This document shows positions 2,582 to 51,507 of a stretch of DNA of 64,000 nucleotides, piece by piece; the stretch's first letter is position 1; each line of letters opens with the position of its first letter. Both the position numbers and the translations under genes were made by a program. The stretch is taken from the IMG/VR virus record IMGVR_UViG_3300028840_007609. One strand, written 5' to 3'. The stretch is from a virus. The notes below the pieces were generated by a model, which was given only the letters and a program-made list of their open reading frames with translations, was not told where the DNA came from and did not search any database.

Positions 2582-3441
2582 ATTTCGACACTTTTTGCAA
2601 GGCAATAGAATTTATAATGCCAGACTATATCCCCCTTGTTAAAAAAGCAAAACTATTCTTAATCGATTCAGATTCAATGGAAAAAATAACAACAACCGAA
2701 GCAGCAATAAAACCTGAAGTCGATTTTTTTATGCCATTTCCGGAGGTGGCGTTTGAATGGAAAGCAGGTGTCGTATTATTAGCAGACACCCAATACGAAC
2801 AAAAAATGGACGGAACACGAAAATTTATCGAAGCATATAACGTATCGTCAGACACGGGTTACCGCGTAAACATATTACATGAAGGCGAAATATGGAACAT
2901 AGCAACAACAGAAAACGGAAAAATAATGTCTGACGGTATGATAAAAAACACATGTGCATGCACAACAAAAGGGAAGGTTATAATAAAAGACCGCAATGAA
3001 ATGGAAAACATGCTTTTAAATATAGACCCAAGCGGACTTTTTCTGGAAGAATATAAGAATCACATATTTTATTCTGTGGGGCTGGCACTAAAAACAATTT
3101 TAATATTAAATACCCTTAAAGGAAACTTTATCCTTGAAGAAAAGCCGGTAAAAATCAAAAAGGCAAAAAAAAGAAAATATCAAATACCAAGATCAAATGA
3201 AAGGCCAAAATTTACAATACTTTCGCCAAAAAACATCAGAGAAAAAATGGGCATTGCGGCTTATAGCAATACCGGCAGGACTGTTACGCCGCATGAACGA
3301 CGCCGACATGCCAGAACATATCCCGAGCACGGCCGCTGGAAATCAATGGCCGGCAAAACAATTATAATTCCGGCTACCTGGGTAGGGCCGTCAACGGCAG
3401 TAAGAAAAAACAAAAAATATAAAGTCAGGCTGGACTTATAA
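2491..3441 (+). CDS. hypothetical protein (316 aa)
   Basis: GTG start preceded by GGGAGGAG about 9 nt upstream; basic C-terminus. Confidence 0.65.
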   Translation: MGLQKCKEQGIGEIFKKRPYEDDYKYANKLNFDTFCKAIEFIMPDYIPLVKKAKLFLIDSDSMEKITTTEAAIKPEVDFFMPFPEVAFEWKAGVVLLADTQYEQKMDGTRKFIEAYNVSSDTGYRVNILHEGEIWNIATTENGKIMSDGMIKNTCACTTKGKVIIKDRNEMENMLLNIDPSGLFLEEYKNHIFYSVGLALKTILILNTLKGNFILEEKPVKIKKAKKRKYQIPRSNERPKFTILSPKNIREKMGIAAYSNTGRTVTPHERRRHARTYPEHGRWKSMAGKTIIIPATWVGPSTAVRKNKKYKVRLDL

Positions 3442-3645
3442 TAATAAACAAGGCAGCTGCCGGTTAACACCGACAGGGGGCCGGGGACACAGAGTCGGGT
3501 CAGTCCATGATAGACCGCCTGAAAAAACATTACACTAAGCCAAACGGTTTGACAGTAAGTATTTCAGGATCAACGGTGAACCCTTGGATGCATCCCTGGC
3601 GCCCGATAAACAACAAGCCGACAAGCCAAAAAGGAAAATCATAAA

Positions 3646-4794: not shown

Positions 4795-5280
4795 ATGCCA
4801 CAACTAAAAACCGAAATTCATCAAGACATGAAAACCTTAATGCGAGAAGTATTCTTTAATGCATCCAGCGTAGCTGTGCATATGGACACTGTCCCCATGT
4901 TTTTGTTTTTTACCGAGGAAAAAGAATTTATAGTCATGCCAATAACCCCAGAGATGCCCAAAGAAACAATAAAAGAAGCTGTAAAACAAACGGCTGTGAA
5001 TTTAAACGCAAAAGCTGTTGTATATCTCGATGAAGCATGGATGTTAAAAGTGAACAAAAATCAAAAATACAACCCTGAAAAAGACGGACCAATAAAAAAT
5101 CATCCGGACAGGGTTAAAAACCTGCTGGTAGCGATACGGGATAACCACAACAACACTTTCATGATTACCGGAGAAATAACAAACAGAGAAGGCGGTGTGC
5201 GGATTGTCGGAGAGCCGACCGAAACTAAAGAAGGAGTAGTGAACATAATACCAAGATGGAACGAAAACTTCGAAGCATAA
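4795..5280 (+). CDS. hypothetical protein (161 aa)
   Basis: AAGGAG SD; ORF track. Confidence 0.7.
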   Translation: MPQLKTEIHQDMKTLMREVFFNASSVAVHMDTVPMFLFFTEEKEFIVMPITPEMPKETIKEAVKQTAVNLNAKAVVYLDEAWMLKVNKNQKYNPEKDGPIKNHPDRVKNLLVAIRDNHNNTFMITGEITNREGGVRIVGEPTETKEGVVNIIPRWNENFEA

Positions 5281-5456
5281 AAGACTTGATATCGCCTGAA
5301 AATCCTAAAATCTGGGGTCGATGCCAGGCGTGCGGAGCTGAAAATCAACACACAAAAAACTGCCCGGAGTGTGAAGACATAGCGCAACGGGCAGCGCGAT
5401 TTCGCAGAAAACGTGGGGCATCCGGAAGTCCTGTCAACGCGGGGAAGAAACCCTAG
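5256..5456 (+). CDS. small zinc-ribbon protein (66 aa)
   Basis: CQAC...CPEC motifs; ends in TAG; overlaps the upstream gene by 25 nt. Confidence 0.45.
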   Translation: MERKLRSIKDLISPENPKIWGRCQACGAENQHTKNCPECEDIAQRAARFRRKRGASGSPVNAGKKP

Positions 5457-5731
5457 TCTGTGAAGCTCAGCCGTTCAGCGCCGTCGCGTGTCGTTGCTGG
5501 CGGAAAAAGAGACGCGTCCAAATTTTATATTAATATAAAATTTTAATGAACAGTGTCCGCCGAAAATAAATCCAGCCTCACACAAAACGGTCGTGCCTGA
5601 ACATAATCCCCTGGATGGAAAGGCGATGGCTATGAAGCAGGCCTACGTACGACGTTGGCGGCTACGGAGAGCCGCCGCTGCGAAAAAGCTTTAATATAAT
5701 ATAATATAATATAATACAAGGAGTAAGCAAA

Positions 5732-14926: not shown

Positions 14927-15039
14927 GATGCACCTCAAAAAAATAAAAATTAACATATTCTTTGAATAACATAATCATAAAAAGGCTATGGATGTCAACC
15001 AAGCAAAGGTTTTCAAAGAAAGAAATAAAGGAGAGTAAA

Positions 15040-15267
15040 ATGTCCAAAGTACTTGGTATTAAGATGATTGAAATGTATTGTGATATCATCAGCTCAGATT
15101 TTGCGCCACTATTGCTTATGATTGAACCTATTGAGTATGCCGAGCGCAAGGCGGTTGAAGAAAACATCAAAAAATCGCTCGGGTTTGACAAGCTTGAAGC
15201 TGAAAAAGCCAAGCTGAAAAAGCGAATCAATGAAATCGATGAAATTCTCAAGGAATACACGCAGTAG
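15040..15267 (+). CDS. hypothetical coiled-coil protein, N-terminal segment ending at an in-frame TAG
   Basis: AAGGAG SD. Same frame as 15334..15528, with a single TAG between them. Confidence 0.6.
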   Translation: MSKVLGIKMIEMYCDIISSDFAPLLLMIEPIEYAERKAVEENIKKSLGFDKLEAEKAKLKKRINEIDEILKEYTQ

Positions 15268-15333
15268 AAATACATCTTCAGTGAAGGCAGGTCAAAATGG
15301 GTTTCAAAGCTTGATGAACTTGTCGACCAGCAG

Positions 15334-15528
15334 ATGAAGGGCTCTATCAGCAGCGATATAAAAGATTTGCTGGCGCAGATGAAACGTTCTATAAAGCTTT
15401 CCGGCACAGGATCTGAAGACATAAAGAAAATCTTCAACGATCTCCCGAATATTATCGCCGGTTTTCAAAAAACAATCAATAAGGCTCTGAAAAAACAAAA
15501 GCTTTTACCTCCGGTGATAAATGTCTAA
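15334..15528 (+). CDS. hypothetical protein segment (continuation of 15040 frame?)
   Basis: No SD. In frame with 15040..15267, with no other stop between them. Confidence 0.45.
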   Translation: MKGSISSDIKDLLAQMKRSIKLSGTGSEDIKKIFNDLPNIIAGFQKTINKALKKQKLLPPVINV

Positions 15529-15832
15529 ACACGGAATAGATCCCGGGCTTCTGAGCAGACACCTGTCAAGGGTGATAGTTAATGAACATGGGGAGGCTAC
15601 AACACCTTTGCGTGCATCTCAACTCGGCATAAAAATCGACTCTGTATTCATACGCAATGACGGTTGGACGCTCGGGACCCCGGACAATTTAAAAGATATT
15701 GCGTACAATTTATGGGCAGATGAATGGGTCATCTGTATCGATCTAAATCCGTTTAAAATTCATGATTTGTTTTCAATGAGAAAAAATAAAATAAACGAAA
15801 TAAATAAAACAAGGAGGAATAAAAATGGCTAA
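15521..15832 (+). CDS. hypothetical protein (103 aa)
   Basis: ORF track; overlaps the upstream stop. Confidence 0.6.
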   Translation: MSKHGIDPGLLSRHLSRVIVNEHGEATTPLRASQLGIKIDSVFIRNDGWTLGTPDNLKDIAYNLWADEWVICIDLNPFKIHDLFSMRKNKINEINKTRRNKNG

Positions 15833-16058
15833 ATCTTCCAAAATGCATCAATTGTTAGCAGTAGAAGCCGATCTGCGTGCAGCGTTCAACAAGATCCTGC
15901 AGGAATCAATGGTAACTTTTACCAAAAAGACTGACCATTTTGACGGACACGTTAAAACGCATAAGTATCTGGCAGCAGCAGATGAAGGCGTAAAGTCCCG
16001 GGTTCAGGACGAGCACAAGGCGATCGTCACAACCGTGCAGCAGAAACTGGATTACTAG
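15825..16058 (+). CDS. hypothetical protein, N-terminal segment ending at an in-frame TAG
   Basis: AAGGAGG SD. Same frame as 16104..16619. Confidence 0.6.
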   Translation: MAKSSKMHQLLAVEADLRAAFNKILQESMVTFTKKTDHFDGHVKTHKYLAAADEGVKSRVQDEHKAIVTTVQQKLDY

Positions 16059-16103
16059 ACAAAATCCGTTATCAATTATTTCGATCTTTTACTGCAGCGC
16101 GAA

Positions 16104-16619
16104 ATGACCAACCAGCTGGCCAAGGCAGATATCGTTATTGACGGCAAAACGATCATGTCGGATGTGCCGGCAACGTTTTTATTGTCAATGGAAAACCAGC
16201 TCAAGGAGCTCAGGAAAGTATACAACACGATTCCGACATACGCTCCCGGGGTTCACTGGAAAGTGGCGGCCGACAAAGGCCCCGGCATTTACGAAACTGA
16301 GTTTCCGGAAGAACGGTTCCAGACGGAAACGGTCACGGAGCCGATTGTATTGTATCCTCACAAGTTTCCGAAGGAAGGCGAAAAGGGAGAGCCGTTGGCG
16401 GCTCAGATCTCAACGACCAGTAAAACCCGCAACGTCGGTATGTACACAACGACAAAATGGACCGGCCGGTTCTCGCCGACCGAAAAATCTGAAATGCTGG
16501 GCCGTATTGACAAATTGCTTGTGGCTGTGAAAAAAGCCAGGACCAGAGCAAACAACACTGAAATTATCAACCGCAATGACAGCAAAAAAATGCTTGACTT
16601 CATTCATGGAGTTGAATAA
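16104..16619 (+). CDS. hypothetical protein segment (continuation of 15825 frame?)
   Basis: No SD. 15 sense codons separate it from the TAG at 16056-16058. Confidence 0.55.
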   Translation: MTNQLAKADIVIDGKTIMSDVPATFLLSMENQLKELRKVYNTIPTYAPGVHWKVAADKGPGIYETEFPEERFQTETVTEPIVLYPHKFPKEGEKGEPLAAQISTTSKTRNVGMYTTTKWTGRFSPTEKSEMLGRIDKLLVAVKKARTRANNTEIINRNDSKKMLDFIHGVE

Positions 16620-16800
16620 TTTTTAATTAGGCTATCATTATCGTTAATCTAATCATTAGAACGGTTTTTGTTTAAGGCGTCACAATAAAAACCTGACGTA
16701 ACAAAAACCAATCATTGTTGTTATCTTAACGCCTAACAAAATCAGGCATTTGTAATTTAATTATTAAATGGCGAATATTATTCGGGCTTGCCCGAAACTA

Positions 16801-17009
16801 ACTGGAAATCCGAGTTCGACTCTCGGTTGCCCCTCCATTATGGAGGCGCTGCTATTTTTAACGGCAAATTGGATTAGTCATCCATTGGCTTGAAAAAAAC
16901 AGAAAAGCGATGTTGGGGGGATAAGGACAAAACTCTGACAGCTTAGCAGCGCGTTTCTAAGCAGCGCCTCCATAATTGCGGGGCAATCGTCCAACGGTAG
17001 GACGCTGGT
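16801..17009 (+). ncRNA. circularly permuted tRNA-like element (T-arm half upstream of D-arm half)
   Basis: 16801-16837 carries the anticodon-stem 3' strand, T arm, acceptor 3' strand, U and CCA. 16980-17009 carries the acceptor 5' strand (7/7 complementary), D arm and anticodon-stem 5' strand. A 17-bp perfect hairpin lies between them. Confidence 0.55.
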
Positions 17010-17075
17010 TTTAGTCATCTTAAATAAATTTGCGCATTTAAAATAAATTGCAGCCAAATCCATTTTGTTTCCGAT

Positions 17076-17151
17076 TTAAATATAGCTCAAATGGTAGAGC
17101 ATTGGGCTTATAACCCAAAGGTCGCGGGTTCGATTCCCGCTATTTAATCCA
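17076..17151 (+). tRNA. tRNA-Ile (anticodon UAU), CCA encoded
   Basis: Hand-folded cloverleaf. Acceptor TTAAATA/TATTTAA, D arm GCTC-AAATGGTA-GAGC, anticodon arm TTGGG-CTTATAA-CCCAA, T arm GCGGG-TTCGATT-CCCGC. Confidence 0.8.
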
Positions 17152-17175: not shown

Positions 17176-17212
17176 GGGCGGCTGCAAGGAAAGGTAGCCG
17201 CCCAACTTTTTT
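17176..17212 (+). terminator. rho-independent terminator
   Basis: GGGCGGCT / AGCCGCCC stem followed by T6. Confidence 0.75.
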
Positions 17213-17431: not shown

Positions 17432-17843
17432 AAACAAAGAAAATTTTTTATTTTTTATATCAGAGGCCAAATACTGGATAAGTGATTTTGGCCTTTTTGA
17501 TTGGAACATACATTTTACCACGGAAGAACCTCCAAGTAATATATTAAACGACGATACTGACTTTGGATATCTTGCCTGGTACCAGGCTGTTGAATCAAAT
17601 AAAGCAGCAAGAATCGGGCTTAGCCTCGAAACAGAAAAAGATTCTCAAAAAAGCATTGCAAAAGCTGCATTTCATGAAGTATGTGAAATTTTACTACATC
17701 CGCTGGAAGGTTTTGCAAGATGTGATGCTGCACCATCAACAACAGATGCAATTATAACTGAAAAACACACTGTTATCAGAAGGCTTGAAAAAACAATATT
17801 CGAGCCGTACTGGCAAAAAAGGACATTACACCATGGGGATTGA
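17415..17843 (+). CDS. hypothetical protein with HExxH motif (142 aa)
   Basis: The HEVCEILLH motif suggests a zinc-metallopeptidase-like fold. Confidence 0.55.
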   Translation: MMNQDKNKENFLFFISEAKYWISDFGLFDWNIHFTTEEPPSNILNDDTDFGYLAWYQAVESNKAARIGLSLETEKDSQKSIAKAAFHEVCEILLHPLEGFARCDAAPSTTDAIITEKHTVIRRLEKTIFEPYWQKRTLHHGD

Positions 17844-18438
17844 ACAGCCAGCAACTTTTTATGATGGAATGTATACACGCCGCGAAAAATATTTTGGCGA
17901 CTATACGAAAAATTCATGCTTTAAATGCGGATTATGGCCGGCGGCAGTCAAGCATTTAAATAACAATGACGTTATTTTTGAAGCCGGGTGTGGATCCGGA
18001 CAATTTGCCCAGTATGTATATACAAAAGTAAAGCCAAAATCATACTTTGGCATTGATTTTAGCCCGGTTGCAATCGAACTTGCCTTAAATAAAGCCCCGC
18101 TTGGAATTTTTCTTGTTCGCGATCTTACGGATGATGACGACATCTCTTTCAGGCTCCAAAAATTCAATGTTTTTGTTGCACTGGAATTTCTGGAACACAT
18201 CAACGAAGACCTGAAAATTCTGAACAAAGTAAAAGCCCTCGACAGAAAAATCAAGGTTATTACATCTGTTCCTGATTTTAACTCAGCCGGACACGTTCGC
18301 CATTTTAAATCAGAACAAAAAATTCGCAATCGCTATGAATCGATCATAAACAACCTTGAAATTGAATATTTTGGTGGCCGATGGCTGATGATTGGAGAAA
18401 TCAATACAAAAAAAAGTCAAACTAAAATCTTCGATTGA
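17833..18438 (+). CDS. class I SAM-dependent methyltransferase
   Basis: Motif I is FEAGCGSGQFA. ORF 17785..18438; the ATG at 17833 overlaps the upstream stop. Confidence 0.8.
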   Translation: MGIEQPATFYDGMYTRREKYFGDYTKNSCFKCGLWPAAVKHLNNNDVIFEAGCGSGQFAQYVYTKVKPKSYFGIDFSPVAIELALNKAPLGIFLVRDLTDDDDISFRLQKFNVFVALEFLEHINEDLKILNKVKALDRKIKVITSVPDFNSAGHVRHFKSEQKIRNRYESIINNLEIEYFGGRWLMIGEINTKKSQTKIFD

Positions 18439-18583
18439 CAATATAGTCAGTTTTTGGCCAACAGAAGAATCTCTGTTTGAAATATTGGCTCAAATTGGGT
18501 ACACATCGGCTTATAAAATCATGGTCCCGCATGAGCCGAACAAACCAAAAGACAGAATCACAATTTTGGCATTAAATTCATGA
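18392..18583 (+). CDS. small ORF (63 aa), possible methyltransferase C-terminal remnant
   Basis: TTG start. Reached from the methyltransferase frame across an A8 run (18408-18415). Confidence 0.3.
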   Translation: MEKSIQKKVKLKSSIDNIVSFWPTEESLFEILAQIGYTSAYKIMVPHEPNKPKDRITILALNS

Positions 18584-19473
18584 AAATAGCTTTTCTGATG
18601 CGCAGCAGATGGGGTGACCGGACGCAGTTTGGCGTTGTGTCAAAGACGTGTGCAAAGCAGTTTTTCTGGGACCCTGTATCAGCGGTAAGGGATATAAACC
18701 AGTTCAATCCTGATTTTTTGTTTGTAAACAAGCAATATGATATCAATGTAATCGAAAAGCTGGTTGAAAAGTATCCCATGGCTTATTTTTTGGGAGATTA
18801 TCGCTATCCATTACCACAGAGTATCGTAAGGCTTCTAAATTATGCAAAAATAGGATTTTTTACATGGAAAAAGCCCGATATAAATAATACATGGCCAAAA
18901 ATTAAATTAGTTCACCAGGGAGCCAACCCCAACGTTTATAAGGCTAATCCAAGAATAGAAAAAAAATATGACGTTATTTTTGCAGGAAATAACTGGGGTT
19001 CAGGTCTAAGAATGCAAACAGTAACGTTTTTAAATAACAATTTCAACTTTTTAGCCATTGGTGACGGCTGGCCGAAGAACATAAATTCACTCACACGTCG
19101 TCGGGCAGGCTCAGTGCCAAGGTATTATTCCCAGGCATATATAACCGTTGGCATTATGAACAGAACAGATTTTAGTAAAAACGACGTTACACATTATACG
19201 TCAAACAGACTTTTTAACTGTATGGCCATGGGAATTCCACATATAGCTCCAAGGCAAGCTTTAGTACACACTTTGTTTAAAAAAGGCTACCAGGATTGGG
19301 CCACACATCAGGAATTAGCAGATAAAATTAATTTATTTTTAAAGAATAAAAAACACGCCAAAAATGTAGGCAGGCTGCAACGTGAAGAAGTTTTAAACAA
19401 CCACACAACACTGCACGCCTGGCTAAGAATGGAAGATAAAATCAGACAATGCCTACATTCAATGAAATCGTAA
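18580..19473 (+). CDS. glycosyltransferase-like protein (GT1/CgeB-like)
   Basis: The C-terminal pattern YDVIFAGNNWG...NRLFNCMAMGIPHIA resembles the GT-B C-domain. Call by pattern only. Confidence 0.5.
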   Translation: MKIAFLMRSRWGDRTQFGVVSKTCAKQFFWDPVSAVRDINQFNPDFLFVNKQYDINVIEKLVEKYPMAYFLGDYRYPLPQSIVRLLNYAKIGFFTWKKPDINNTWPKIKLVHQGANPNVYKANPRIEKKYDVIFAGNNWGSGLRMQTVTFLNNNFNFLAIGDGWPKNINSLTRRRAGSVPRYYSQAYITVGIMNRTDFSKNDVTHYTSNRLFNCMAMGIPHIAPRQALVHTLFKKGYQDWATHQELADKINLFLKNKKHAKNVGRLQREEVLNNHTTLHAWLRMEDKIRQCLHSMKS

Positions 19474-20270
19474 AATTTATCCAAACACTCTATAATGGAA
19501 AATGCCTTAATTTTTCTGACGATTCAAAGATTCTGCAAATATCGTCGATAAACGATGCCAACCATCCACAAACACTTACCTGGGTCAACTCAACTGAAAA
19601 ACTACAGGAAAAACCGTTTACTGCCGGCCTTGTAATAGCCCCAAAACACGCATTTTATTATGAAAAAACCATATGTGTCGACAACCCGAAATATGTCCTT
19701 GCGATGGTGCTTAAAAAATTTTTTACGAATCTTGCTGAAAACAAGCATGCAATTGCAAAAAAATCTTTTAGGATTGGAGACAACTCTAGTATTGTAAACA
19801 CTTATATGGGGACAAATTGCCACATAGGAGCAAACTGCTCAATTGGATACCCCGGGATAAACATAGCAAGGGACAATAATAATAATTTCACAGATTTTTT
19901 ACATATAGGAACAGTTGAAATTGGAGATCATGTAAAAATAGGAAATAATGTATGCATCCAGCGTGCTATATTTGGAAAAACAAGAATTTTACATTATTCA
20001 ACAATAGGCAGCCTTGTAAATATTGGACACAACTGTGAAATAGGCCGTGAAGTTGTTATAATCAATGGAGCAATTATTTGCGGCAGCGTAAAAATTGGTG
20101 ACGGTTCATGTATAGGTGCTGGGGCAATAATCAGAAATAAAGTTAAAATTGGCAAAAATGTAACTGTAGGCGCCGGTTCTGTGGTGTTGAAGGACATTCC
20201 GGACAACAAAAAAGTTATAGGCAACCCGGCACGCATAATTAAATCAACAAAGGAGTATCCTCCAAAATGA
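19449..20270 (+). CDS. hexapeptide-repeat (left-handed beta-helix) acyl/acetyltransferase
   Basis: Many [LIV]-G-x4 repeats (IGANCSIG, IGDHVKIGNNV, IGHNCEIG, IGDGSCIGAGA); GNPARI tail. Confidence 0.75.
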   Translation: MPTFNEIVKFIQTLYNGKCLNFSDDSKILQISSINDANHPQTLTWVNSTEKLQEKPFTAGLVIAPKHAFYYEKTICVDNPKYVLAMVLKKFFTNLAENKHAIAKKSFRIGDNSSIVNTYMGTNCHIGANCSIGYPGINIARDNNNNFTDFLHIGTVEIGDHVKIGNNVCIQRAIFGKTRILHYSTIGSLVNIGHNCEIGREVVIINGAIICGSVKIGDGSCIGAGAIIRNKVKIGKNVTVGAGSVVLKDIPDNKKVIGNPARIIKSTKEYPPK

Positions 20271-20767
20271 TAGATCCGACATCATGGATCGCGCCTGGCG
20301 TTAAAATCTTACGCTCAACTAATATAGGAAAATTTTGCATATTAAAATCTGGTATTTATATCGGAGAAAATTGCAATATAAAAAATTATGTTCTAATATC
20401 AGAAAATGTTTCTATTTTTAATGATGTTTTTATTGACAGTTACGTTAAATTTTCCGAAAAATGTGTTATAGGCAACAATGTAACGTTAAGATACAATGCA
20501 ACTGTGGCCAGGAATGTACGAATTTCAAACAATGTATTCATAGCACCAAATGTAATGATGATTTACGATGACTACAAATTCCATAAAAAAGGACCAACAT
20601 TGATAGGGGAAGGGGCCTTTATAGGCGCGAATTCAGTTCTGGGACCATCTGTTATTATAGGAAAAAATGTTATTATTGGTGCAATGTCTTTTGTAACAAA
20701 AAATTGTATTGAGCCAGGGACATATTTTGGAAGTCCGGCAAAATTAATCAAAAAATTAAAGAAATAA
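20267..20767 (+). CDS. hexapeptide-repeat acetyltransferase
   Basis: Repeated IGENCNI / IGNNVTL / IGANSVLG / IGKNVIIGA hexapeptides. Confidence 0.7.
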   Translation: MIDPTSWIAPGVKILRSTNIGKFCILKSGIYIGENCNIKNYVLISENVSIFNDVFIDSYVKFSEKCVIGNNVTLRYNATVARNVRISNNVFIAPNVMMIYDDYKFHKKGPTLIGEGAFIGANSVLGPSVIIGKNVIIGAMSFVTKNCIEPGTYFGSPAKLIKKLKK

Positions 20768-20768
20768 A

Positions 20769-21395
20769 ATGCTTAACAATTTTAAAAAAGTATTAGTACT
20801 GTGCCCACACCCAGACGACGAAATTGGATGTGCTGGCACTTTAAGCAGATTTTCAGCTGAATTTGAAGTAAACATGCATGCTATATTTTTTAGTCGATGT
20901 GAAGTTGAGCCGCATATATCAGGTTCTGGAAGGGAAGAAGAAGGGCGTAAAAGCATGAACGTTCTCGGCATAAAACACATTTCTTTCTGGAATCACCACG
21001 TAAGAAGCTTCTATAAAGATCGACAAATAATTCTTGAAAGACTAATCGCGAAAAAAAACGAGTTTAACCCAGACTTTATTTTGTTGCCATGTCCAAACGA
21101 TATGCATCAAGACCATGAAGTTGTTTATAAAGAAGGGTTGCGAGCATTTAAACATACAAACATTTTTGGATATGAAATGCCTCAAAACTTAAGGTTTTTT
21201 AAAAACACGGCATTTGTTGAAATCTCGCAAAAAAATCTTGACGAAAAAATAAAAGCACTGCAAAACCATAAGTCACAAATGAAAAAAACCTACATGCAAC
21301 CTGAATTTATAAAAGCCCTTGCAGTAATCAGAGGGATGCAAGCAGGCGTGCAATACGCCGAAGCATTTGATGTTATACGCCTTGTTATAAAATAA
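20769..21395 (+). CDS. PIG-L/LmbE family deacetylase
   Basis: VLCPHPDDEIGCAG and HQDH motifs. Confidence 0.85.
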   Translation: MLNNFKKVLVLCPHPDDEIGCAGTLSRFSAEFEVNMHAIFFSRCEVEPHISGSGREEEGRKSMNVLGIKHISFWNHHVRSFYKDRQIILERLIAKKNEFNPDFILLPCPNDMHQDHEVVYKEGLRAFKHTNIFGYEMPQNLRFFKNTAFVEISQKNLDEKIKALQNHKSQMKKTYMQPEFIKALAVIRGMQAGVQYAEAFDVIRLVIK

Positions 21396-21442
21396 AAAAA
21401 AACAATATACAATTTGAATAAAAAAACACTTAAAAAGGAGGA

Positions 21443-22477
21443 GTGCCTTTGAAGCCGCACCAGTTTTTAGAAACTGTCTGTCTATGCCTTGCAAATAAAT
21501 TCACATTAATGGGGGTGGGGCCGCCTGGATGCGGTAAGACTGACATCTCAATGCAGGGTATAAGAAAAATGAATGCAGATGTAATTTTAATGCACCCTGT
21601 TGTTGATGACCCTACTGACTATAAAGGATTTCCGTTTAAATTCGTAGATCCGGACACAGGTCTTGAAGCAGCTGATTTTCTGGCTTATGGAAATTTAAGA
21701 AAAATGGTAGACGCTGACAAATTAACCGGCGTCATCATGGACGATATGGGTCAGGCAGCCAAAACAGTCCAGGCAGCAGCCATGCAGCTCGTATGGGGCG
21801 GCACAATTAACGGTAAAAAAATATCAGACAAAGTATCGTTTATTATGCTGTCAAACAGGCGTCAAGACAAGGCTGCAGTTACGTCCATTCTTGAGCCTTT
21901 AAAAAACAGATCAACGATAGTGCACCTTGAAACTGATGTGGATGATTGGTGCCGCTGGGGCATAAAAACAAAACAGCCGCCGGAAAACATTGCTTTCAAT
22001 AGATTCAGGCCAAGGTTCTTGCTTGAAGGCTTTAAGGCAACTTCAGATTTTCTCAACTCAGCAACTCCAAGATCTATTGCAAGATGCGGCGAGTTTTTGA
22101 AAGCCGGCATTCCGAAAGAGATAGAATTTGAAATTTTTGAAGGAACGGCCGGGAAAGAATTTGCTTCAGAATTTATGAGCTTTTTAAGGCTATACAGAGA
22201 GTTGCCTGATATAAATTCTATAATCAGAAATCCCGAAGAATGCGAAGTCCCAACAAAAGACAGTGTGCTTTATGCTGTGTGTGAAGCCATTGCAACCCGG
22301 GCAAACAGAAAAAACTTTGACAATATTATAAAATTCAGCAAACGCATTTCTGAAGAATTTATGATGATGATGATAAGGGATTCAATTGCGCATAACAAAA
22401 ACGTCCAGGAAACCGAAAGTTTTATTCAATGGCAAATTGACCATCAAGATGTTCTGCTATTTACCGGTAATGAATAA
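21443..22477 (+). CDS. AAA+ ATPase (MoxR/CobS-like)
   Basis: Walker A is GPPGCGKT. The SD position favours a TTG start at 21449. Confidence 0.75.
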   Translation: MPLKPHQFLETVCLCLANKFTLMGVGPPGCGKTDISMQGIRKMNADVILMHPVVDDPTDYKGFPFKFVDPDTGLEAADFLAYGNLRKMVDADKLTGVIMDDMGQAAKTVQAAAMQLVWGGTINGKKISDKVSFIMLSNRRQDKAAVTSILEPLKNRSTIVHLETDVDDWCRWGIKTKQPPENIAFNRFRPRFLLEGFKATSDFLNSATPRSIARCGEFLKAGIPKEIEFEIFEGTAGKEFASEFMSFLRLYRELPDINSIIRNPEECEVPTKDSVLYAVCEAIATRANRKNFDNIIKFSKRISEEFMMMMIRDSIAHNKNVQETESFIQWQIDHQDVLLFTGNE

Positions 22478-22860
22478 TGTTCTCTTTTTCGTTTTTAAAT
22501 GAAAAAATAGGCTTAATATCAATCAACTTTGGCAAAATGAATGTTTATTTTTGGAATCATCTTCCGATAGCTTTCAGAAATGCTGCCAAAAAAGAAGTTG
22601 TTTTTAGAGAACCAGGTGGAGTAAGCCTTGAAGCGATCAATGAATTAAAATACATTTTTGATTTTTCAGGCAAATATAAATTTGTCGAAAAAGATCATCA
22701 GGGATTTCAGGCAGCCTTAAAAGAGTTTTATAAAAAAGTTATATATTCAGAATGTTCAAGGCTTACATTAAACAGAATGGGGGTAAAAAATGATAGCCCA
22801 GAAAGCAACACTGATAAGCTTAGAAATATTTCAATTAGGCCTATCGATGAAGGATCTTGA
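22477..22860 (+). CDS. hypothetical protein (127 aa)
   Basis: TAATG coupling; ORF track. Confidence 0.5.
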   Translation: MFSFSFLNEKIGLISINFGKMNVYFWNHLPIAFRNAAKKEVVFREPGGVSLEAINELKYIFDFSGKYKFVEKDHQGFQAALKEFYKKVIYSECSRLTLNRMGVKNDSPESNTDKLRNISIRPIDEGS

Positions 22861-23659
22861 GGTAACTAACGCGGCTCACAGGGCTGTCGGGATAAACAAT
22901 AAACGTGCAGGATATTATCGCAAATTCAAAATAGACAGAAATGATGTGAGGCCCATTCTTCAGGTGGCCACAGCTGCAAGGCAATACCATCGCAGAATGA
23001 CGGTTCCATGGGACAGGGGGCATTATCGTTTGTTGCCGGCCACGTTGATCTTAAAATATACGAAAACAATGAAGGAATTCAAGCACGATTTTTTTGCAAA
23101 AGTAGACGATCTTGTAGTCAGATGGCCGACTGTAATTTCGAACTGCAGAAAAAGGCTCGGTAGTACGTTTAAGCAACAGGACTACCCGGACGCAAAAAAA
23201 GTAAAAGATTTTTATTCATTTGAGACACATTTCAAACCGGTACCGCAAGATGATCATTTTATTTTGCAGGTAGAGCATTCAACCCTTGAAGAACTCAAGG
23301 AAAAATTCAACCAGGATGAAAAGAAAAACATCCAGGATGTTGTTGAGTCTTTATGGCATAGACTGTTTGACCCTGTTAAACGAATGTCTGAAATTTTAAA
23401 TGAACAGCCAAAAGGCAAAAAGCCGAAAATTTTTGATACGCTGGTTAACAACCTTGAAGATATAGTAATGGTATTGCCAGATCTAAACATCAACAATGAT
23501 CCGCAACTTACCGAAATGACAAAAAGGATAGGCGATGAACTCTGTAAATTCACGCCGGGGCAATTAAGAAAAGATGCCATGGCCAGAAAAACAACGGCAA
23601 ATGCAGCCAAGAAAATTGAAGAAGACATGTCTGCCATTATGGGACAATCGCAAATATGA
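22790..23659 (+). CDS. hypothetical protein (289 aa), possibly DUF3150-like
   Basis: Lies between the AAA+ and VWA genes, as in CobS/CobT-like phage modules. Family assignment is from memory only. Confidence 0.6.
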   Translation: MIAQKATLISLEIFQLGLSMKDLEVTNAAHRAVGINNKRAGYYRKFKIDRNDVRPILQVATAARQYHRRMTVPWDRGHYRLLPATLILKYTKTMKEFKHDFFAKVDDLVVRWPTVISNCRKRLGSTFKQQDYPDAKKVKDFYSFETHFKPVPQDDHFILQVEHSTLEELKEKFNQDEKKNIQDVVESLWHRLFDPVKRMSEILNEQPKGKKPKIFDTLVNNLEDIVMVLPDLNINNDPQLTEMTKRIGDELCKFTPGQLRKDAMARKTTANAAKKIEEDMSAIMGQSQI

Positions 23660-25137
23660 TAAAATCTTTTGAAGAAATGACAGCCAATGAAAGAATCAGA
23701 CGGGCACGAACAATGCTGGTACTTGGCACCGGAGACGAGCCGTTTTATGGTTCAATTGCGCTCGGCCTTGAACTAGTTGAATGCAATAGAATTCCAACAG
23801 GGGTAACTGATGGTAAAATTTTAATCTACAATACTGACTGGATCGAAAGTATAGATTCAATTGAAGAAGTTATGGGATTCGTTGAGCATGAAGTTTTACA
23901 CGGGGCAATGAAGCATCCACTCAGGCAGTTTGATATAGAAAAATCTACAGACTTTGATGGAGATTTGTGGTCAATGGCCTGTGATTATGCAATCAATCCA
24001 ATTCTGGTTAACAAAAACAGAAAGTTGCCAGGCAAGCCGCTTTATGAATCGAGATTTAACGACATGGCGGCCGAACGAATTTATTCCATATTATTTGAAG
24101 AAAAACAACAGCAGCAGCAGCAACAAGGACAGCATGGTTCCGGAAATAAAGGGAGTGGTGATGAAGACGGAGACGAGAATGGCCAATGTAAAAAGAAAAC
24201 GCAGGATAACAATGGCAAATCTCAAACGAATAAGAACTCTGGTTCGTCGAAGGAAAAGCCTGGAAACGGAAATTCTAAAAGTTTGTCCGGACCTAAAGAA
24301 AGCGCTGATAATAACAACCAGAACAATGAACAGAACCGTCAACAAAATAATGGAAAAGAAAAAGATCAATCAGACCTAAACAAAGCTTTAGATAATTTCA
24401 AAGATCCTGGCGGCTGCGGCGGCACAATACCGCCAATGAACATGGAGACTGAAGAGCAGCTCAAAGGAGATGAATTAAAAGATTTTAAACACGACTTTGA
24501 AAACAGGGTTGTAAACGCTGCTCGGCAGATTGAAAAAAATCAAGGCAATATTCCGGGGTTTTTAAAAGACATTGTTGAGGCGCACACTACGCCACAGGTA
24601 ACATATAAAGATCAGCTCAGGGATATCATGGAGGAAATCACAAGGGATGATTACTCAATGGCGCGGCCAAACCGCAAATTCGATGAAATCTATATTCCAA
24701 CGCTGTATGATAAAATAATTGTTGACTTGGCCATTGCGGTCGATGCCAGCGGGTCTGTGTCAAAGCATGAACAGCAGATATATGCATCTGAAATATCCGG
24801 CATTCTTGAAGAATTTCCACAAATAAAAATCGTTATTCTTTTTCATGACACTCATGTAAGACACAAACAGGAAGTAACCCCTGAAGATTTGCCGATAAAA
24901 CTTGAGATTAGGGGCGGTGGCGGCACTTCATATAAACCGGTAATAGACTATATTGAAAAAAATGGCATCGAGCCAAAAGTTCTACTTTGGTTTACAGATC
25001 TATGGGTAGGACAATACACCTACAATCAAATTAGGCCCATCCCGGACTATGAAGTTTTCTGGCTAAACACTTCGGCGCCAACAAGAAGAAGCAACCCAAC
25101 CTTTGGAACAGTAATAGATTTAGATCCAAATGCCTAA
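23656..25137 (+). CDS. VWA-domain protein with N-terminal HExxH metallopeptidase-like domain
   Basis: HEVLH motif. Q/N/G-rich linker containing a CAG repeat. MIDAS motif DASGS. Confidence 0.7.
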   Translation: MIKSFEEMTANERIRRARTMLVLGTGDEPFYGSIALGLELVECNRIPTGVTDGKILIYNTDWIESIDSIEEVMGFVEHEVLHGAMKHPLRQFDIEKSTDFDGDLWSMACDYAINPILVNKNRKLPGKPLYESRFNDMAAERIYSILFEEKQQQQQQQGQHGSGNKGSGDEDGDENGQCKKKTQDNNGKSQTNKNSGSSKEKPGNGNSKSLSGPKESADNNNQNNEQNRQQNNGKEKDQSDLNKALDNFKDPGGCGGTIPPMNMETEEQLKGDELKDFKHDFENRVVNAARQIEKNQGNIPGFLKDIVEAHTTPQVTYKDQLRDIMEEITRDDYSMARPNRKFDEIYIPTLYDKIIVDLAIAVDASGSVSKHEQQIYASEISGILEEFPQIKIVILFHDTHVRHKQEVTPEDLPIKLEIRGGGGTSYKPVIDYIEKNGIEPKVLLWFTDLWVGQYTYNQIRPIPDYEVFWLNTSAPTRRSNPTFGTVIDLDPNA

Positions 25138-25411: not shown

Positions 25412-25523
25412 ATCAAAGAAAAACTTGAAATATCGAAAAACCTTGTGTCATCTTCAAATCGATTATGAACTTGGAGAAAAGGAAAAACCCCCAAATCCAA
25501 GTGTTTTCGGACTTGAGGGCATT

Positions 25524-25586
25524 GAAAGCTTGGTTACCGACTAAGAAAGCTTGGTCGCTGACTAAGAAAGCTTGGTCACTGACTAA
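25524..25586. repeat. 3 x 21-bp tandem repeat (GAAAGCTTGGTNNCNGACTAA)
   Basis: Read directly from the sequence. Each unit carries a TAG in the portal frame on the minus strand. Confidence 0.9.
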
Positions 25587-27106
25587 GCTTGATCAGCGGG
25601 ACGAACCTTAGCACCGCCTCCGGTTTCGTTGTGAAAATTATCTGCCAAAAGCGGTATCTCTTCAGGAGTTTTGCTATTAGTTTCGTTTTCAATCTTCTGG
25701 CGTTCATCATCAGTTAAATCAGGCAGCATCATTGAAGCCACCTTCATCTGCAGTTTAACCCTGAAAGTTTTGCTGGCCATATTACGCATAGACGTAAACG
25801 CATTATCAAGCGCAACAGCAAGGTCGTCAATTGAAAACTCTTTACTCCTTGAAATTTTTATTTTTTGAAACAGCTCTGTTTTATTTTGCCATTTAAGCCA
25901 CAGCCTTATAATCTGATATTCAGCTTCAACCATATTATCTGATTTTTTGCTGAGCACACTAAACAGCTGCCTAAAATTATATCTTAATGCCAACCCGCTC
26001 TGGGCCTCATTGGATGTCCGCTGCCCGGCCACCCCAGAAAGATGTGCAATTCTAAATATTTCGTTTTGTTTTCTGTCAATCCAGCTTAAAATAGCCTCTA
26101 TCGGTTCTGCTATTTCTGTCGGCATCCAGTCAGGCTTTGCGGCGTCTCCATAGTTTGGATCGAACTGATGCACTGCCCTTACACCAACTTCCTCTTGTTT
26201 ATCGTCATCGCCTTCTTCCGGAGAGCTGCCGTCTTCCATGGGGACCCTTAACATCGGAAATCCAGCCATTTTGATAACTTCTTCGCCGCATGACAGGTTT
26301 CTAACAATACTGGAAACAATTCTGCTTATATCGACAATGTCGCTTACCCCAAGATATGAATGTTTCACACGTTTTACATTGGGCATCCATATAAATGGAA
26401 TTTCTCCAATTGGATTGGTGCTTTCTCCACGCAATTTAGGTGTGTTGGTCTTTTTGTCAAGCTCCCAATGTTCCCATTTGTTAGGCCACCAAAGCAAATA
26501 AGATCCGTCCTCCTCGCGAAGTTTTAAATAAGTAAGAATTGGCCGGTGCGTTCTCGAATTACGTTCAATTTTCCAGTCGTAAATATTCGGTAAGGAGTAC
26601 AAGGCAACATATGGATATGCCCCGCTATCTATTTCATCTTGAACATTCTTAAAAATTCCACCAGGTTTGTTAACCAAAATTCCAATAGATCCTGATGCTG
26701 AAGACAATTTTTGCGTTTCGTCAATTAAATTAACAAAATCGGAATTCATCAAATCAGCATCCTTCGAAAACATTTTCCACTGTTCATCATCTTCGAGCCC
26801 ACCAAGTTGACGACTGGTATCAGTTTCGGTCAGATAATAATTAAACAAATCAACAATTGTTTTTGCATAATTAAATACGAAACCGTCGTTTTGCCTCTCA
26901 GCCCAATTCTTTAATGACTCCTTCGTGCTATATCTGTGGAGGCAATATTCAATAAATGGCCTTCCACCGTTATATGCAAGTTCGTAAAGCTGCCATTCTT
27001 CAATGTTGACTTTATACAACGCATGCTTTTCTTCAAGCTCTTCTTTCCTCATCCCTACCTTTTTTATTTCAGGCTTTGACACTTTGGTTTTATTTTTTTT
27101 GCTCAT
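25583..27106 (-). CDS. portal protein
   Basis: About 507 aa, immediately downstream of terL with ATGA coupling. Call rests on position and size. Ends in TAG. Confidence 0.7.
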   Translation of the reverse strand: MSKKNKTKVSKPEIKKVGMRKEELEEKHALYKVNIEEWQLYELAYNGGRPFIEYCLHRYSTKESLKNWAERQNDGFVFNYAKTIVDLFNYYLTETDTSRQLGGLEDDEQWKMFSKDADLMNSDFVNLIDETQKLSSASGSIGILVNKPGGIFKNVQDEIDSGAYPYVALYSLPNIYDWKIERNSRTHRPILTYLKLREEDGSYLLWWPNKWEHWELDKKTNTPKLRGESTNPIGEIPFIWMPNVKRVKHSYLGVSDIVDISRIVSSIVRNLSCGEEVIKMAGFPMLRVPMEDGSSPEEGDDDKQEEVGVRAVHQFDPNYGDAAKPDWMPTEIAEPIEAILSWIDRKQNEIFRIAHLSGVAGQRTSNEAQSGLALRYNFRQLFSVLSKKSDNMVEAEYQIIRLWLKWQNKTELFQKIKISRSKEFSIDDLAVALDNAFTSMRNMASKTFRVKLQMKVASMMLPDLTDDERQKIENETNSKTPEEIPLLADNFHNETGGGAKVRPADQA

Positions 27107-28560
27107 TTCCAAAACCTCAACTTTCTGCGCCTCATTTTAGGCTTTGCGGCCCAGCGCAAGAATTGTGTAATTGAATCCACATCATCATCTTCGTCAGCCA
27201 ATGGAAACTGCGAAATCTGTGTTTCAGTTTTTTCAAGCCAATCTGCATATACCGGTAAAAAAACATTTCCAGCTTCCACCACAGGGGAAACTTCGCTGGC
27301 CCTAAGCTTTTTGCTCCTTTCAGCAGAAATTGCAATTACAGGAATATTTGTTTCTGATTTAAGCACCTGTATCAAACTTTGCCCTGATGCCTTGTCCTCT
27401 ATAAGAACCGGAATTGGTGATTTGATAAACTTGTTATAAAGTTCCCACAGCCTAATGCAAGTCTTTTTAAGCTTTGGAAATCCCATACGTTTATTATAAA
27501 CATAAAGTAAATAATATCCGTGTTCGCCAACTCCCCAGACAGAGCAGGACGATGGATTATTTATTTCTTCTTCTTTAAAGGCAGTATCCCAGCTCATGAC
27601 AATTTGCCTGATCTTAAACGGCAATTCACTCGGAATATGACCGGTAGCCTTGCACCTTGATTCATGGATCTGCCATTCAAGCTCACTGTATCTGCCGAAC
27701 CACCCCAGTTTTAAAATATCGCCGTCTTCGTTCAGGGGCCGCTGCTGGTATTGAGAAAGCCACTCTCGCGTGCCGACATTTTTTTTGATTTGAAGCAATG
27801 TTCCAAGGGAATAGTCTGATTCCCACAGTGCATCACCTACAGTACGCTTGGTGTATTGACAGTCATCCTCTGCGATTGCCGGCATGGAAATTACAACCCA
27901 CTTGTCTTTTTTTTCTTTTAAAAGCCAACCGACAAGATCATCAAAATGCCACCGTGTCATAACTACAACGATTCTGTTGTCCGGCTGCAATCTGGTATAA
28001 ACTACGGATTTATAAAAAGTCTGGATTTTTTCACGGGTAGACTTGCTTTCAGCTTCTTCACGATTTTTTACGGGGTCATCGATAATAAATAAATTGGCAC
28101 CACGGCCAATAACAGTTCCTCCAACACCGATACTAAAATAGTTCCCGCCTTGAATTGTTGAAAGCTTGTTAACACTCTTGCTGTCCGGAGATATTCTGCA
28201 ATTAGGAAAAAAACTGCTATGTATTGGATCGAGAAACTGGTTTCTAACAGACCTCCCAATATCACCCGCACGCTCATAATTATAAGTTGTTGCTATGATT
28301 TGGTGTGAAGGATTACGGCCCATGTACCAGGCCGGGAAGTGCTCGCTTACATGAAGTGTTTTTCCATGACGCGGAGGCATTGATATCATAAGCCTTCTAA
28401 TTCTGCCTGACTCCAACGCTTCAAGGGCATTACATAAAAGTGCGGTATGGTTCGATACTCTATATGAAGGGTTCTGAAAACTTATATATGAGCCAAGATA
28501 TTTATATGCAAGATCTTCGTTTGATACTCTTGAAAGGTCTAATTTTAAATTAGTTTTCAT
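27103..28560 (-). CDS. terL: terminase large subunit
   Basis: Walker A-like PPRHGKT. C-terminal nuclease-like acidic motif ADEDDDVDS. 485 aa. Confidence 0.85.
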   Translation of the reverse strand: MKTNLKLDLSRVSNEDLAYKYLGSYISFQNPSYRVSNHTALLCNALEALESGRIRRLMISMPPRHGKTLHVSEHFPAWYMGRNPSHQIIATTYNYERAGDIGRSVRNQFLDPIHSSFFPNCRISPDSKSVNKLSTIQGGNYFSIGVGGTVIGRGANLFIIDDPVKNREEAESKSTREKIQTFYKSVVYTRLQPDNRIVVVMTRWHFDDLVGWLLKEKKDKWVVISMPAIAEDDCQYTKRTVGDALWESDYSLGTLLQIKKNVGTREWLSQYQQRPLNEDGDILKLGWFGRYSELEWQIHESRCKATGHIPSELPFKIRQIVMSWDTAFKEEEINNPSSCSVWGVGEHGYYLLYVYNKRMGFPKLKKTCIRLWELYNKFIKSPIPVLIEDKASGQSLIQVLKSETNIPVIAISAERSKKLRASEVSPVVEAGNVFLPVYADWLEKTETQISQFPLADEDDDVDSITQFLRWAAKPKMRRRKLRFWK

Positions 28561-29050
28561 CGTATGCTATTTGAAGTGGTGTAATATCAATAATTTCAGA
28601 GTCTTGTCCGTATGCAGCAGCATTTATTGCAGCATCACGCTGTTCTTTGTCCACGTTGTCAGGATCAAGCCTTTTCAATGCCATAATCCTAAGTTCTGGT
28701 GCGTAAAGTCCAAGAATTCTTGCTTCTTTTTCAATCAGCTTGGTATACTCCTCGACCCAGCGTGTACCTTTTGATGGTTCCATTCTAAGCTTGTTAAGCT
28801 GAGTAAGGCATTTCTGCTTCATGTCATGGATTTCTCTAAGAACTCTATTTCGATGAAATAAAAAATCTTCAGTGGACATACGCACACAGTTTGCCTTTAT
28901 TTCAGCAATATCGGCGCCTATTGTACTTGGAGAAACTTTTAAAACTTTTGCTAACTCAGAATGACTTAAGTATGGGTTTTTTCTAAGAACTTTAGCTACT
29001 TTGACCTGCCTTTTCATTTTTTCGACTTTAAATCTTGATCGTCTGGCCAT
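28550..29050 (-). CDS. terS: terminase small subunit (HTH)
   Basis: HTH SHSELAKVLKVSPSTI; lies directly upstream of terL; AAGGAG SD. Confidence 0.65.
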   Translation of the reverse strand: MARRSRFKVEKMKRQVKVAKVLRKNPYLSHSELAKVLKVSPSTIGADIAEIKANCVRMSTEDFLFHRNRVLREIHDMKQKCLTQLNKLRMEPSKGTRWVEEYTKLIEKEARILGLYAPELRIMALKRLDPDNVDKEQRDAAINAAAYGQDSEIIDITPLQIAYDEN

Positions 29051-47495: not shown

Positions 47496-48125
47496 ATGAA
47501 AACATTCGATCCAAACATAGTGCTTGAGCTGGCTAAAGAAGGGTTCAGTTTTTTTCTTTATACAGAACTCAGCTTCTCGTCAACATATCGATACCAAAAT
47601 TCTGACATAGACATTTATTATGACAGCAACTTGTATACACCAATCGACTTTACGATAGGTGGAATTGAAACTTCAGGCGACCTTGGAGTTGATTCCATTG
47701 AAATAGAGTTTAACGATGTCGAAGGAGTGTTAAAGGCAATTGTACTAAACGAAGATATCCGTGGAAAAAGCATAGAGGTCGGATTCTTTTGCTTAAACGC
47801 ATCTGCTGTTGTGATAGAGCTTCAAAGCATGTTTCTCGGAATAGTAAACGACTGGGAGTTAAAAGAAGGAACATGTAAAATTGAAATTCAGAACGAACTT
47901 GTTTTGTGGCGCAAAGAAACCCTGCGCCAGCAATCATCCTCATGCCAATGGGTCTTTAAAGGAACTGAGTGTACATATTCCGGAAATGAGACATGGTGCG
48001 ACCAGTCATACGAACGCTGTGAAGCTCTTGGAAATGAAGACAATTACGGCGGGTTCAGATGGCTACCAAGCATAATGGATGTTGATATCTGGTGGGGCAG
48101 AGTACCTGACAGGAGTAGCGAATAA
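47496..48125 (+). CDS. tail tip protein (gpL-like; DUF2163 plus BR0599-type Cys motif)
   Basis: The C-terminal motif CQWVFKGTECTYSG...WCDQSYERC...NYGGFRWLP matches the BR0599 / gpL-type pattern. Confidence 0.7.
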   Translation: MKTFDPNIVLELAKEGFSFFLYTELSFSSTYRYQNSDIDIYYDSNLYTPIDFTIGGIETSGDLGVDSIEIEFNDVEGVLKAIVLNEDIRGKSIEVGFFCLNASAVVIELQSMFLGIVNDWELKEGTCKIEIQNELVLWRKETLRQQSSSCQWVFKGTECTYSGNETWCDQSYERCEALGNEDNYGGFRWLPSIMDVDIWWGRVPDRSSE

Positions 48126-51499: not shown

Positions 51500-51507
51500 G
51501 TGAAACA

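Follow-up and report, generated by a model that had tools for sequence, protein, structure and literature searches.

A family of YrlA-like, circularly permuted tRNA mimics, probably partnered with DUF7873, in bacteriophages

The 64,000-nucleotide (nt) stretch of viral DNA analysed here (IMG/VR record IMGVR_UViG_3300028840_007609, hereafter the window) contains the two halves of a tRNA-like gene in reversed order, which raises the question of what kind of RNA this locus makes. Both halves lie on the plus strand, as do all other features of the locus described below. The 3′ half (16801-16837) consists of an anticodon-stem 3′ strand (ACTGG, 16801-16805), a 4-nt variable (V) loop (AAAT, 16806-16809), a T arm (CCGAG/TTCGACT/CTCGG, 16810-16826), an acceptor 3′ strand (TTGCCCC, 16827-16833), the discriminator U73 (T, 16834) and an encoded CCA (16835-16837). 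It precedes the 5′ half (16980-17009), which consists of an acceptor 5′ strand (GGGGCAA, 16980-16986), U8 and C9 (TC), a D arm (GTCC/AACGGTA/GGAC, 16989-17003), G26 (17004) and an anticodon-stem 5′ strand (CTGGT, 17005-17009). The two are separated by an acceptor spacer of 142 nt (16838-16979) with a perfect hairpin base of 17 base pairs (bp; 16837-16853/16960-16976) and inner hairpins. All motifs that the initial annotation of the window had quoted for the two halves were found where it had placed them, and a search of the flanks agreed with it that no matching 5′ half lies upstream; likewise, no 3′ half lies downstream. The body has the L-shape of an orthodox class-I tRNA, with its parts arranged as 3′ half, NCCA, spacer and 5′ half. 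On balance, we favor the interpretation that 16745-17055 encodes a non-coding permuted tRNA mimic of YrlA-like architecture, probably partnered with the DUF7873 protein encoded upstream, which would serve as a ribonucleoprotein (RNP) adaptor or decoy.

Unconstrained minimum free energy (MFE) folding yielded the permuted cloverleaf, with z = -4.9 for 16770-17030 and z = -5.5 for 16739-17075. We searched the window with a permutation-aware scanner, which looks for a T arm, a 7-nt acceptor strand and NCCA, followed at up to 1 kb by a complementary acceptor strand, a D arm and a strand that pairs with the sequence before the T arm, and which demands full complementarity of the acceptor strand. The scanner returned exactly one site for the 64-kb window and nothing for 20 shuffled versions. 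ARAGORN and Rfam searches of the window called the neighboring tRNA-Ile(UAU) and did not call the permuted element, RF00005 included. A canonical tRNA was also rejected on structure, as there is no contiguous cloverleaf with an anticodon loop.

Exact-match scans of IMG/VR for both halves and a first degenerate pattern found no relatives. Because the relatives are too divergent for such scans, they were reached through the DUF7873 (PF25283) gene (15825-16619), with which as anchor ~110 loci were gathered from IMG/VR, JGI metagenomes, GTDB metagenome-assembled genomes and Logan assemblies. A regular-expression (regex) search within 1.2 kb downstream detected the permuted element at 82 of 104 distinct loci, where it follows DUF7873 at a distance of 100-300 nt and in the same orientation; the control rates were 1/102 for upstream sequence, 1/104 for the opposite strand and 2/104 for shuffles. 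A covariance model (R1) derived from the cores recovered 17 of the 22 loci missed by the regex, at 45-67 bits, bringing the total to ~99/104. The scanner found the element in 76 of 109 sources and nowhere in 635 kb of shuffles. In the reverse test, an RNA-only pattern run on IMG/VR returned 121 junctions of T arm, CCA and D arm, eight of which were truly permuted. DUF7873 lay 135-297 nt upstream of five of the seven assessable permuted elements, compared with 3 of 89 ordinary tandem tRNAs, and the other two of the seven had no detectable DUF7873 upstream. The linkage to DUF7873 is thus strong but not absolute.

Carriers include cultured phages whose identified hosts are all bacteria, and the family spans phages of Proteobacteria and Actinobacteria. 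The element is found at 3439-3526 in Rhizobium phage RHph_TM30 (locus L111) and at 3453-3544 in Vibrio phage D472 (L112); Klebsiella phage Centimanus (L114) has two elements, and Gordonia phage GodonK (L113) and Arthrobacter phage Racecar (L115) have two tandem elements apiece, with spacers of just 3-5 nt in three of those four. In the unrelated phages GodonK, Racecar and RHph_TM30 the DUF7873 gene is embedded in a large tRNA cluster. The element is kept in phages both with and without tRNA clusters, and the family is also present where DUF7873 is uninterrupted by TAG. An ordinary tRNA or a terminator usually follows ~45-55 nt after the element.

The homologues share the permuted cloverleaf with massive compensatory change, which upholds the description of the element as a circularly permuted tRNA-like gene. 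The 65 distinct cores comprised 54 different acceptor 5′ strands, all of them paired at 7/7 positions, and 62 different anticodon-stem strands. In the core alignment (A3), 94.7% of the cells were paired, compared with 61.3% in shuffles, and the covariation score was 0.883, whereas shuffles scored 0.217 and slid registers no more than 0.19. Changes on both sides were seen for all seven acceptor pairs, all five anticodon-type pairs and all four D pairs; compensatory change in relatives was the check that the initial annotation had proposed. For 20 full-length members in a plain MAFFT alignment, RNAalifold recovered the same four helices, with 16 of 20 pairs compensatory. As the scanner selects for pairing, its hit rate against shuffles is the unbiased evidence. 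The distinct cores further had U8 (65/65), G18G19, the T loop UUCRANY (63/65) and a purine at position 26 (64/65); the V loop was 4-5 nt, often (A)GGUC, and the first acceptor pair was G1:C72 in 50/65. These results demonstrate the structure and conservation of the family and its linkage to DUF7873 (~95% of DUF7873 loci).

We then considered the acceptor end. CCA followed the discriminator in 70 of 88 elements in a scan that did not require CCA, and CCT did so in eight. The triplet before G1 had U(-3) in 54, A(-2) in 49 and U(-1) in 45 of the 65 cores, compared with U(-1) in 40% of the ordinary tRNAs of the same loci. U(-1) is the base preferred by bacterial RNase P. The acceptor spacer of the relatives measured 3-157 nt, mostly 5-45, and was mostly unstructured and A/U-rich after CCA. 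Because of these short, mostly unstructured spacers, the conserved NCCA and the U-A-U before G1, it is probable that RNase P cleavage frees the acceptor end in family members. In the window, the 7-bp acceptor, NCCA and the family-wide U(-3)A(-2)U(-1) predict the RNase P site at 16979/16980.

The acceptor had been described as closed by the 17-bp hairpin; this hairpin is a window-specific insertion. The window copy is an atypical member: it has a 142-nt insert, and its hairpin is coaxial with the acceptor and takes in A76. The inverted repeat proved perfect and occurs once in the window. In blastn searches of INPHARED with the locus and with the insert, the tRNA-Ile was the only match. A miniature inverted-repeat transposable element or other multi-copy insert was rejected, since the window has a single copy of the insert and INPHARED has none; the 142-nt hairpin spacer is a lineage-specific insertion. 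In one relative (L001) the spacer is 528 nt and has an HNH homing-endonuclease open reading frame (ORF) inside it (5008-5460); the spacer is therefore evidently a tolerated insertion site, as with the window's insert. Folding placed acceptor-extending hairpins in the longer spacers of eight loci (L009, L015, L017, L088, L089, L096, L097 and L100), so that a closed acceptor appears to be tolerated. Given the 17-bp hairpin and a non-consensus UGC before G1, the acceptor of the window copy may instead be left closed, as in most YrlAs. The 9-mer TTAGTCATC, which had been pointed out as repeated in the spacer and next to the anticodon-type stem, was not significant on its own, as at least two copies occurred in 10 of 100 shuffles.

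The other end of the body had been taken to be an open anticodon loop. Instead, the anticodon-type stem is uncapped and, in MFE folds, runs on through an internal loop into a long leader-trailer stalk of ~35 nt per strand with internal loops of its own. In the MFE fold of 16739-17075, the stalk 5′ strand (16745-16776) pairs with 17028-17055, and ACUA (16797-16800) pairs with UAGU (17012-17015), lengthening the anticodon-type stem past a UU bulge. The trailer (17010-17075) comprises this bulge, UAGU, the junction strand, the stalk 3′ strand and a 20-nt linker to tRNA-Ile. A small leader hairpin (UUCGGG-CUUG-CCCGAA, 16781-16796) appears in the folds of the window and was seen in none of the relatives. 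The stalk is not alignable family-wide, and its covariation rests on an alignment-free comparison of cognate and non-cognate duplexes. Cognate leader:trailer duplexes averaged -19.7 kcal/mol, compared with -11.7 ± 4.1 for non-cognate ones, and in 30 of 65 elements the own trailer ranked best among all 65. This test replaced a longest-uninterrupted-helix statistic, which was not discriminating on the AU-rich sequence (8.3 vs 7.2).

The junction strands are variable, with 0-13 nt, A-rich, in the leader and 0-16 nt in the trailer. A loose U-NAG (UUAG, UCAG, UAAG or UGAG) is present in the trailer junction strand within the first ~10 nt after the stem in most members, at 17011-17014 in the window; it resembles the tRNA-Leu(NAG) anticodon set, lies outside any 7-nt loop and is followed by a pyrimidine. 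In one subgroup, AUUAGUUGG and CUCAAYGAAAG form a stalk internal loop. The relatives share an upstream block, ~55 nt before the core and immediately 5′ of the stalk, with the consensus TATTGaCCC.ACAGCTTCAG, to which the window region 16650-16747 corresponds; leader alignment placed a diverged copy at 16722-16747, directly 5′ of the stalk. The first 7 nt of the block pair with a complement 40-170 nt upstream in 30 of 45 loci, compared with 12.4 expected, with compensatory variants, and this complement lies directly after the DUF7873 stop codon. The block may be a further structured domain or a processing signal after that stop. A reiterated phage promoter was rejected, as the block occurs only once in the window and promoter prediction called no sigma-70 promoter.

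DUF7873 is most plausibly the best candidate partner of the permuted RNA, given that the two are almost obligately linked, that its gene is placed in tRNA clusters and that rsr-yrlA/yrlB offers a parallel. The window protein matched Pfam DUF7873 with E = 2e-61 over residues 5-261, a match that spans the single in-frame TAG of the gene (16056-16058). Its AlphaFold model (predicted local distance difference test score, 90.5) is not a HEAT-ring/TROVE fold; Foldseek returned no meaningful neighbor in PDB or BFVD, a PDB sequence search was uninformative, and there was no match in NCBIfam, PADLOC or PHROGs. The C-terminal helix is conserved and strongly basic (GRIDKLIRAVKKARQRAN), which would be compatible with nucleic-acid binding.

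We propose that the DUF7873 mRNA, the permuted RNA and the canonical tRNA-Ile(UAU) (17076-17151; CCA encoded; called by ARAGORN and by Rfam at 76.6 bits) would form one transcription unit that ends at the predicted intrinsic terminator at 17176-17212. This tRNA and this terminator had both been noted initially and were confirmed. No terminator and no sigma-70-type promoter was called between the DUF7873 stop and the element. RNase P would cut at 16979/16980, before G1, and at 17075/17076, the tRNA-Ile site that would set the trailer 3′ end, and the spacer would be trimmed back to the encoded CCA. The acceptor, anticodon-type stem and stalk would keep the resulting two pieces associated as one tRNA-like RNA, as experiments have shown for Mycobacterium smegmatis YrlA. 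DUF7873 would bind the stalk or the junction, leaving the tRNA elbow and the CCA end exposed to dock on a host factor that recognizes tRNA. Since the RNA has no anticodon loop, the RNP could stay out of translation while affecting tRNA metabolism during infection as a decoy or adaptor.

Several observations count against the proposed mimic and its partnership. DUF7873 has no recognizable RNA-binding fold and is tied to the RNA by linkage alone. The discriminator varies (U in 29, G in 16, A in 11 and C in 9), as do the acceptor sequences, arguing against one conserved aminoacylation identity. In the window copy, the triplet before G1 is UGC where the family has UAU, the stalk is AU-rich and weak in the cognate duplex test (-13.8, rank 18/65), and model R1 is unable to span the 142-nt spacer.

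The main alternative, which we regard as unlikely, is that the element is only a processing or stability device, a tRNA-shaped substrate of RNase P, and possibly of RNase III, that splits the DUF7873 mRNA from the tRNA and caps the mRNA 3′ end. The CCA and U(-1) would suit RNase P, the long stalk resembles rRNA-type processing stems, and the lack of a called promoter or terminator after the DUF7873 stop, together with the tRNA that usually follows, fits such a role. However, RNase P needs only the minihelix of acceptor and T arm, yet the D arm, elbow, V loop and anticodon-type stem are conserved and co-vary. The two tandem copies in actinophages and the persistence of the element with and without tRNA clusters also argue against a mere device.

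We consider somewhat less probable still that the RNA is a bona fide YrlA that binds host Ro60/Rsr, hijacked or sponged by the phage, with DUF7873 merely syntenic. Chen et al. 2014 (PMC4201824) define YrlAs by two marks, a neighboring Ro60/Rsr gene and the motif GNCGAAN0-1G, and YrlAs have been described as circularly permuted tRNAs (bioRxiv 10.1101/312249). Some phages carry YrlAs, and Rhizobium, Gordonia and Mycobacterium hosts have Rsr/YrlA (PMC4201824). Among the analogues named initially, YrlA proved to be the closest known family. Both RNAs have the order T arm, acceptor hairpin, D arm, an enclosing anticodon-type stem that runs into a stalk of the 5′ and 3′ regions, and a tRNA-type elbow. 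Both are encoded beside a specific protein gene, sometimes as two RNAs (YrlA/YrlB, and the tandem elements of GodonK and Racecar). The closest form is the M. smegmatis YrlA, which has a 7-bp acceptor, is cut in vivo by RNase P, receives CCA and exists as two Rsr-bound halves (PMC4201824); in the phage family the 7-bp acceptor is the rule and not the exception.

The Rfam YrlA model RF02553 gave full-length matches in 10 of 11 typical members (28-42 bits) and 25.7-41.9 bits in relatives, all far under the gathering score of 69, and no YrlA match in the window element at E ≤ 10. In the match to L005 (40.4 bits), the tRNA-like module aligned well and the Ro60-binding helix was deleted. Of 65 elements, only 5 had the GNCGAAN0-1G motif in the leader and 1 in the trailer, and its position was not consistent; in the window, GGCGAAUA at 16770-16777 is similar to it without the final G. 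The family's neighbor is DUF7873 and not Ro60/TROVE: no TROVE gene was found among the window ORFs scanned (at least ~120 amino acids), the remaining 2.8 kb of the ~66.9-kb genome, with ORFs of up to 221 amino acids, being unscanned for it, and none was called or annotated near the element in L005, L006, RHph_TM30, D472, GodonK, Centimanus and Racecar (within 2.5 kb in the five cultured phages). That remaining 2.8 kb has no tRNA or Rfam match. The conserved 7-bp acceptor, NCCA and UAU are also foreign to YrlA. Thus, the family has a YrlA-like architecture, with the permuted cloverleaf set in an anticodon-type stem, but lacks three of the four testable marks of YrlA membership and is not a YrlA member.

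Permuted tRNA genes occur in Cyanidioschyzon merolae, some green algae and Thermofilum, and are matured by cleavage at a bulge-helix-bulge (BHB) motif, ligation and a circular intermediate. We consider it very improbable that the phage RNA is likewise cut and ligated at its ends into a decoding tRNA, possibly a missing UAG suppressor. The 3′ half before the 5′ half, the short intervening sequence at the acceptor end and the pairing leader and trailer recall such genes, and the body is orthodox with an encoded CCA. CUA (16798-16800) and UAG (17012-17014), placed as initially described, flank the junction, and the complete ~66.9-kb genome has in-frame TAGs but no tRNA(CUA). Unlike permuted tRNA genes, however, the family forms no anticodon loop, has bacterial hosts and encodes its CCA. 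Neither in the window nor in relatives can the junction be read in a register that yields a 7-nt loop with U33 and R37, the junction strands vary, and the CUA is paired with the UAG in the stalk, which bears out the initial decision not to call the element a suppressor. The permuted RNA is not able to decode. No constant BHB geometry (3 nt/4 bp/3 nt) was seen in the family, its identified hosts, being bacteria, have no BHB splicing endonuclease, neither an RNA ligase nor RtcB was found in the window, and the family also accompanies uninterrupted DUF7873 genes. The idea that the window copy supports UAG read-through in a genome without tRNA(CUA) has no structural support, and we give it hardly any credence.

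There is next to no chance that the element is a two-piece (permuted) transfer-messenger RNA (tmRNA), as known from alpha-proteobacteria, cyanobacteria and others. It shares with these the gene order (acceptor piece, spacer, coding piece), a predicted RNase P-type maturation to two paired pieces with a free CCA end and a P2-like helix in place of the anticodon arm, and the Rfam tmRNA_permuted and beta_tmRNA models gave weak, partial matches on the T arm and acceptor. The identity pair G3:U70 was found in only 1/65, with G3:C70 in the window, and this test refutes a tmRNA; moreover, the family has a canonical D stem and no pseudoknots, its members have no tag frame, length or C-terminus in common, the GAA[AC]G motif occurs in only 18/65, ARAGORN, which is aware of permuted tmRNAs, calls nothing, and the best tmRNA_permuted score was 20.2 bits against a gathering score of 47. 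Finally, two readings are refuted, decay of a tandem tRNA duplication to the present halves and a 3′ half left as a phage attachment (attP) core: tandem tRNA junctions can imitate a permuted signal (PMC4201824) and reach 20-42 bits with model R1, and attP sites often bear tRNA 3′ halves, but alignment scores for the missing halves were at shuffle level, GGGGCAA and TTGCCCC occur once each, ~100 independent loci keep the arrangement with compensatory change between halves, and no integrase was found.

The initial annotation knew of no such topology in a phage tRNA cluster; YrlA next to Ro60 occurs in mycobacteriophages (PMC4201824), so phages were already known to carry this topology, and what is new is a Ro60-less, DUF7873-linked, CCA-bearing family. 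Permuted tRNA mimics, formerly known only as Ro60-associated YrlAs, now include a large second lineage that is carried by phages and lies beside a different protein gene; its canonical 7-bp acceptor, its encoded NCCA and its conserved RNase P-type leader are generally missing from YrlAs. No description of the family was found in the limited collection of literature searched on permuted tRNA in phages, DUF7873 and phage tRNA mimics. The findings give DUF7873 its first functional lead, toward tRNA-related RNA biology. More tentatively, DUF7873 and the CCA-bearing mimic might form an unrecognized phage RNP, a functional counterpart of Ro60-Y RNA that uses an unrelated protein and is found in hundreds of phages, with hosts among the Proteobacteria, Actinobacteria and other groups. 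Its non-decoding RNA body, opened by RNase P into two pieces, would capture, decoy or redirect a host factor that recognizes tRNA. Such a factor could be a tRNA-targeting defense nuclease or a processing or charging enzyme. As the module is present in cultured, genetically tractable phages (GodonK, Racecar, RHph_TM30, D472 and Klebsiella jumbo phages), these hypotheses are directly testable.

Standard annotation overlooks the family, as ARAGORN, Rfam and GenBank give nothing, a spurious coding sequence (CDS) or a 'tRNA-Stop' miscall. Artifacts over the element were a 'tRNA-Stop(tta)' call by ARAGORN over one of the two elements of Centimanus (L114, 3510-3593), a 31-amino-acid hypothetical CDS in D472 (L112, 3425-3520) and a minus-strand hypothetical CDS in GodonK (L113, 3494-3622). 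In phage tRNA annotation, T-arm/D-arm junctions are also easily mistaken for real genes.

A second kind of permuted tRNA-like gene was observed, usually downstream of the first, in L022 (3563-3660), L070 (~3560), L073 (~3512), L097 (~3550), L055, L102, L105 and L114 (~3370-3450). It has a class-II (tRNA-Leu-type) D arm, TGGCGRAAYTGGYAGACGC, and A73, with CCA in some members only. An intact anticodon-type hairpin with a 6-7-nt loop follows the 5′ half, so that this kind is apparently opened in the variable-arm region.

As to the wider genome, a contig from the same sample (L109) runs from the window end (64000) round to the window start, giving a genome of ~66.85 kb that is therefore predicted to be circularly permuted or terminally redundant. 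In this complete genome (the window plus 2.8 kb from L109), tRNA-Ile(UAU) and the permuted element were found and no tRNA(CUA). Besides DUF7873, in-frame TAGs are present in the genes for the portal (3), the large terminase subunit (TerL), a 1141-amino-acid tail protein and a primase-like protein, and in a 188-amino-acid ORF; the coordinates listed jointly for these genes are 25463-27112 (minus strand), 27103-28623 (minus strand), 48125-51550, 58874-60562, 14962-15528 and, in L109, 6913-9732. Downstream of the RNA, 17785-25137 holds a sugar-modification cluster with genes for an S-adenosylmethionine (SAM) methyltransferase, a glycosyltransferase and two hexapeptide-repeat transferases, together with a PIG-L-type deacetylase that is probable from inspection of its sequence. 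Next come a PHROG-annotated (MoxR-like) ATPase and a DUF2201 metallopeptidase/von Willebrand factor A (VWA)-like protein. At the matching position, L005 and L006 have an epimerase and a Glycos_transf_4 gene.

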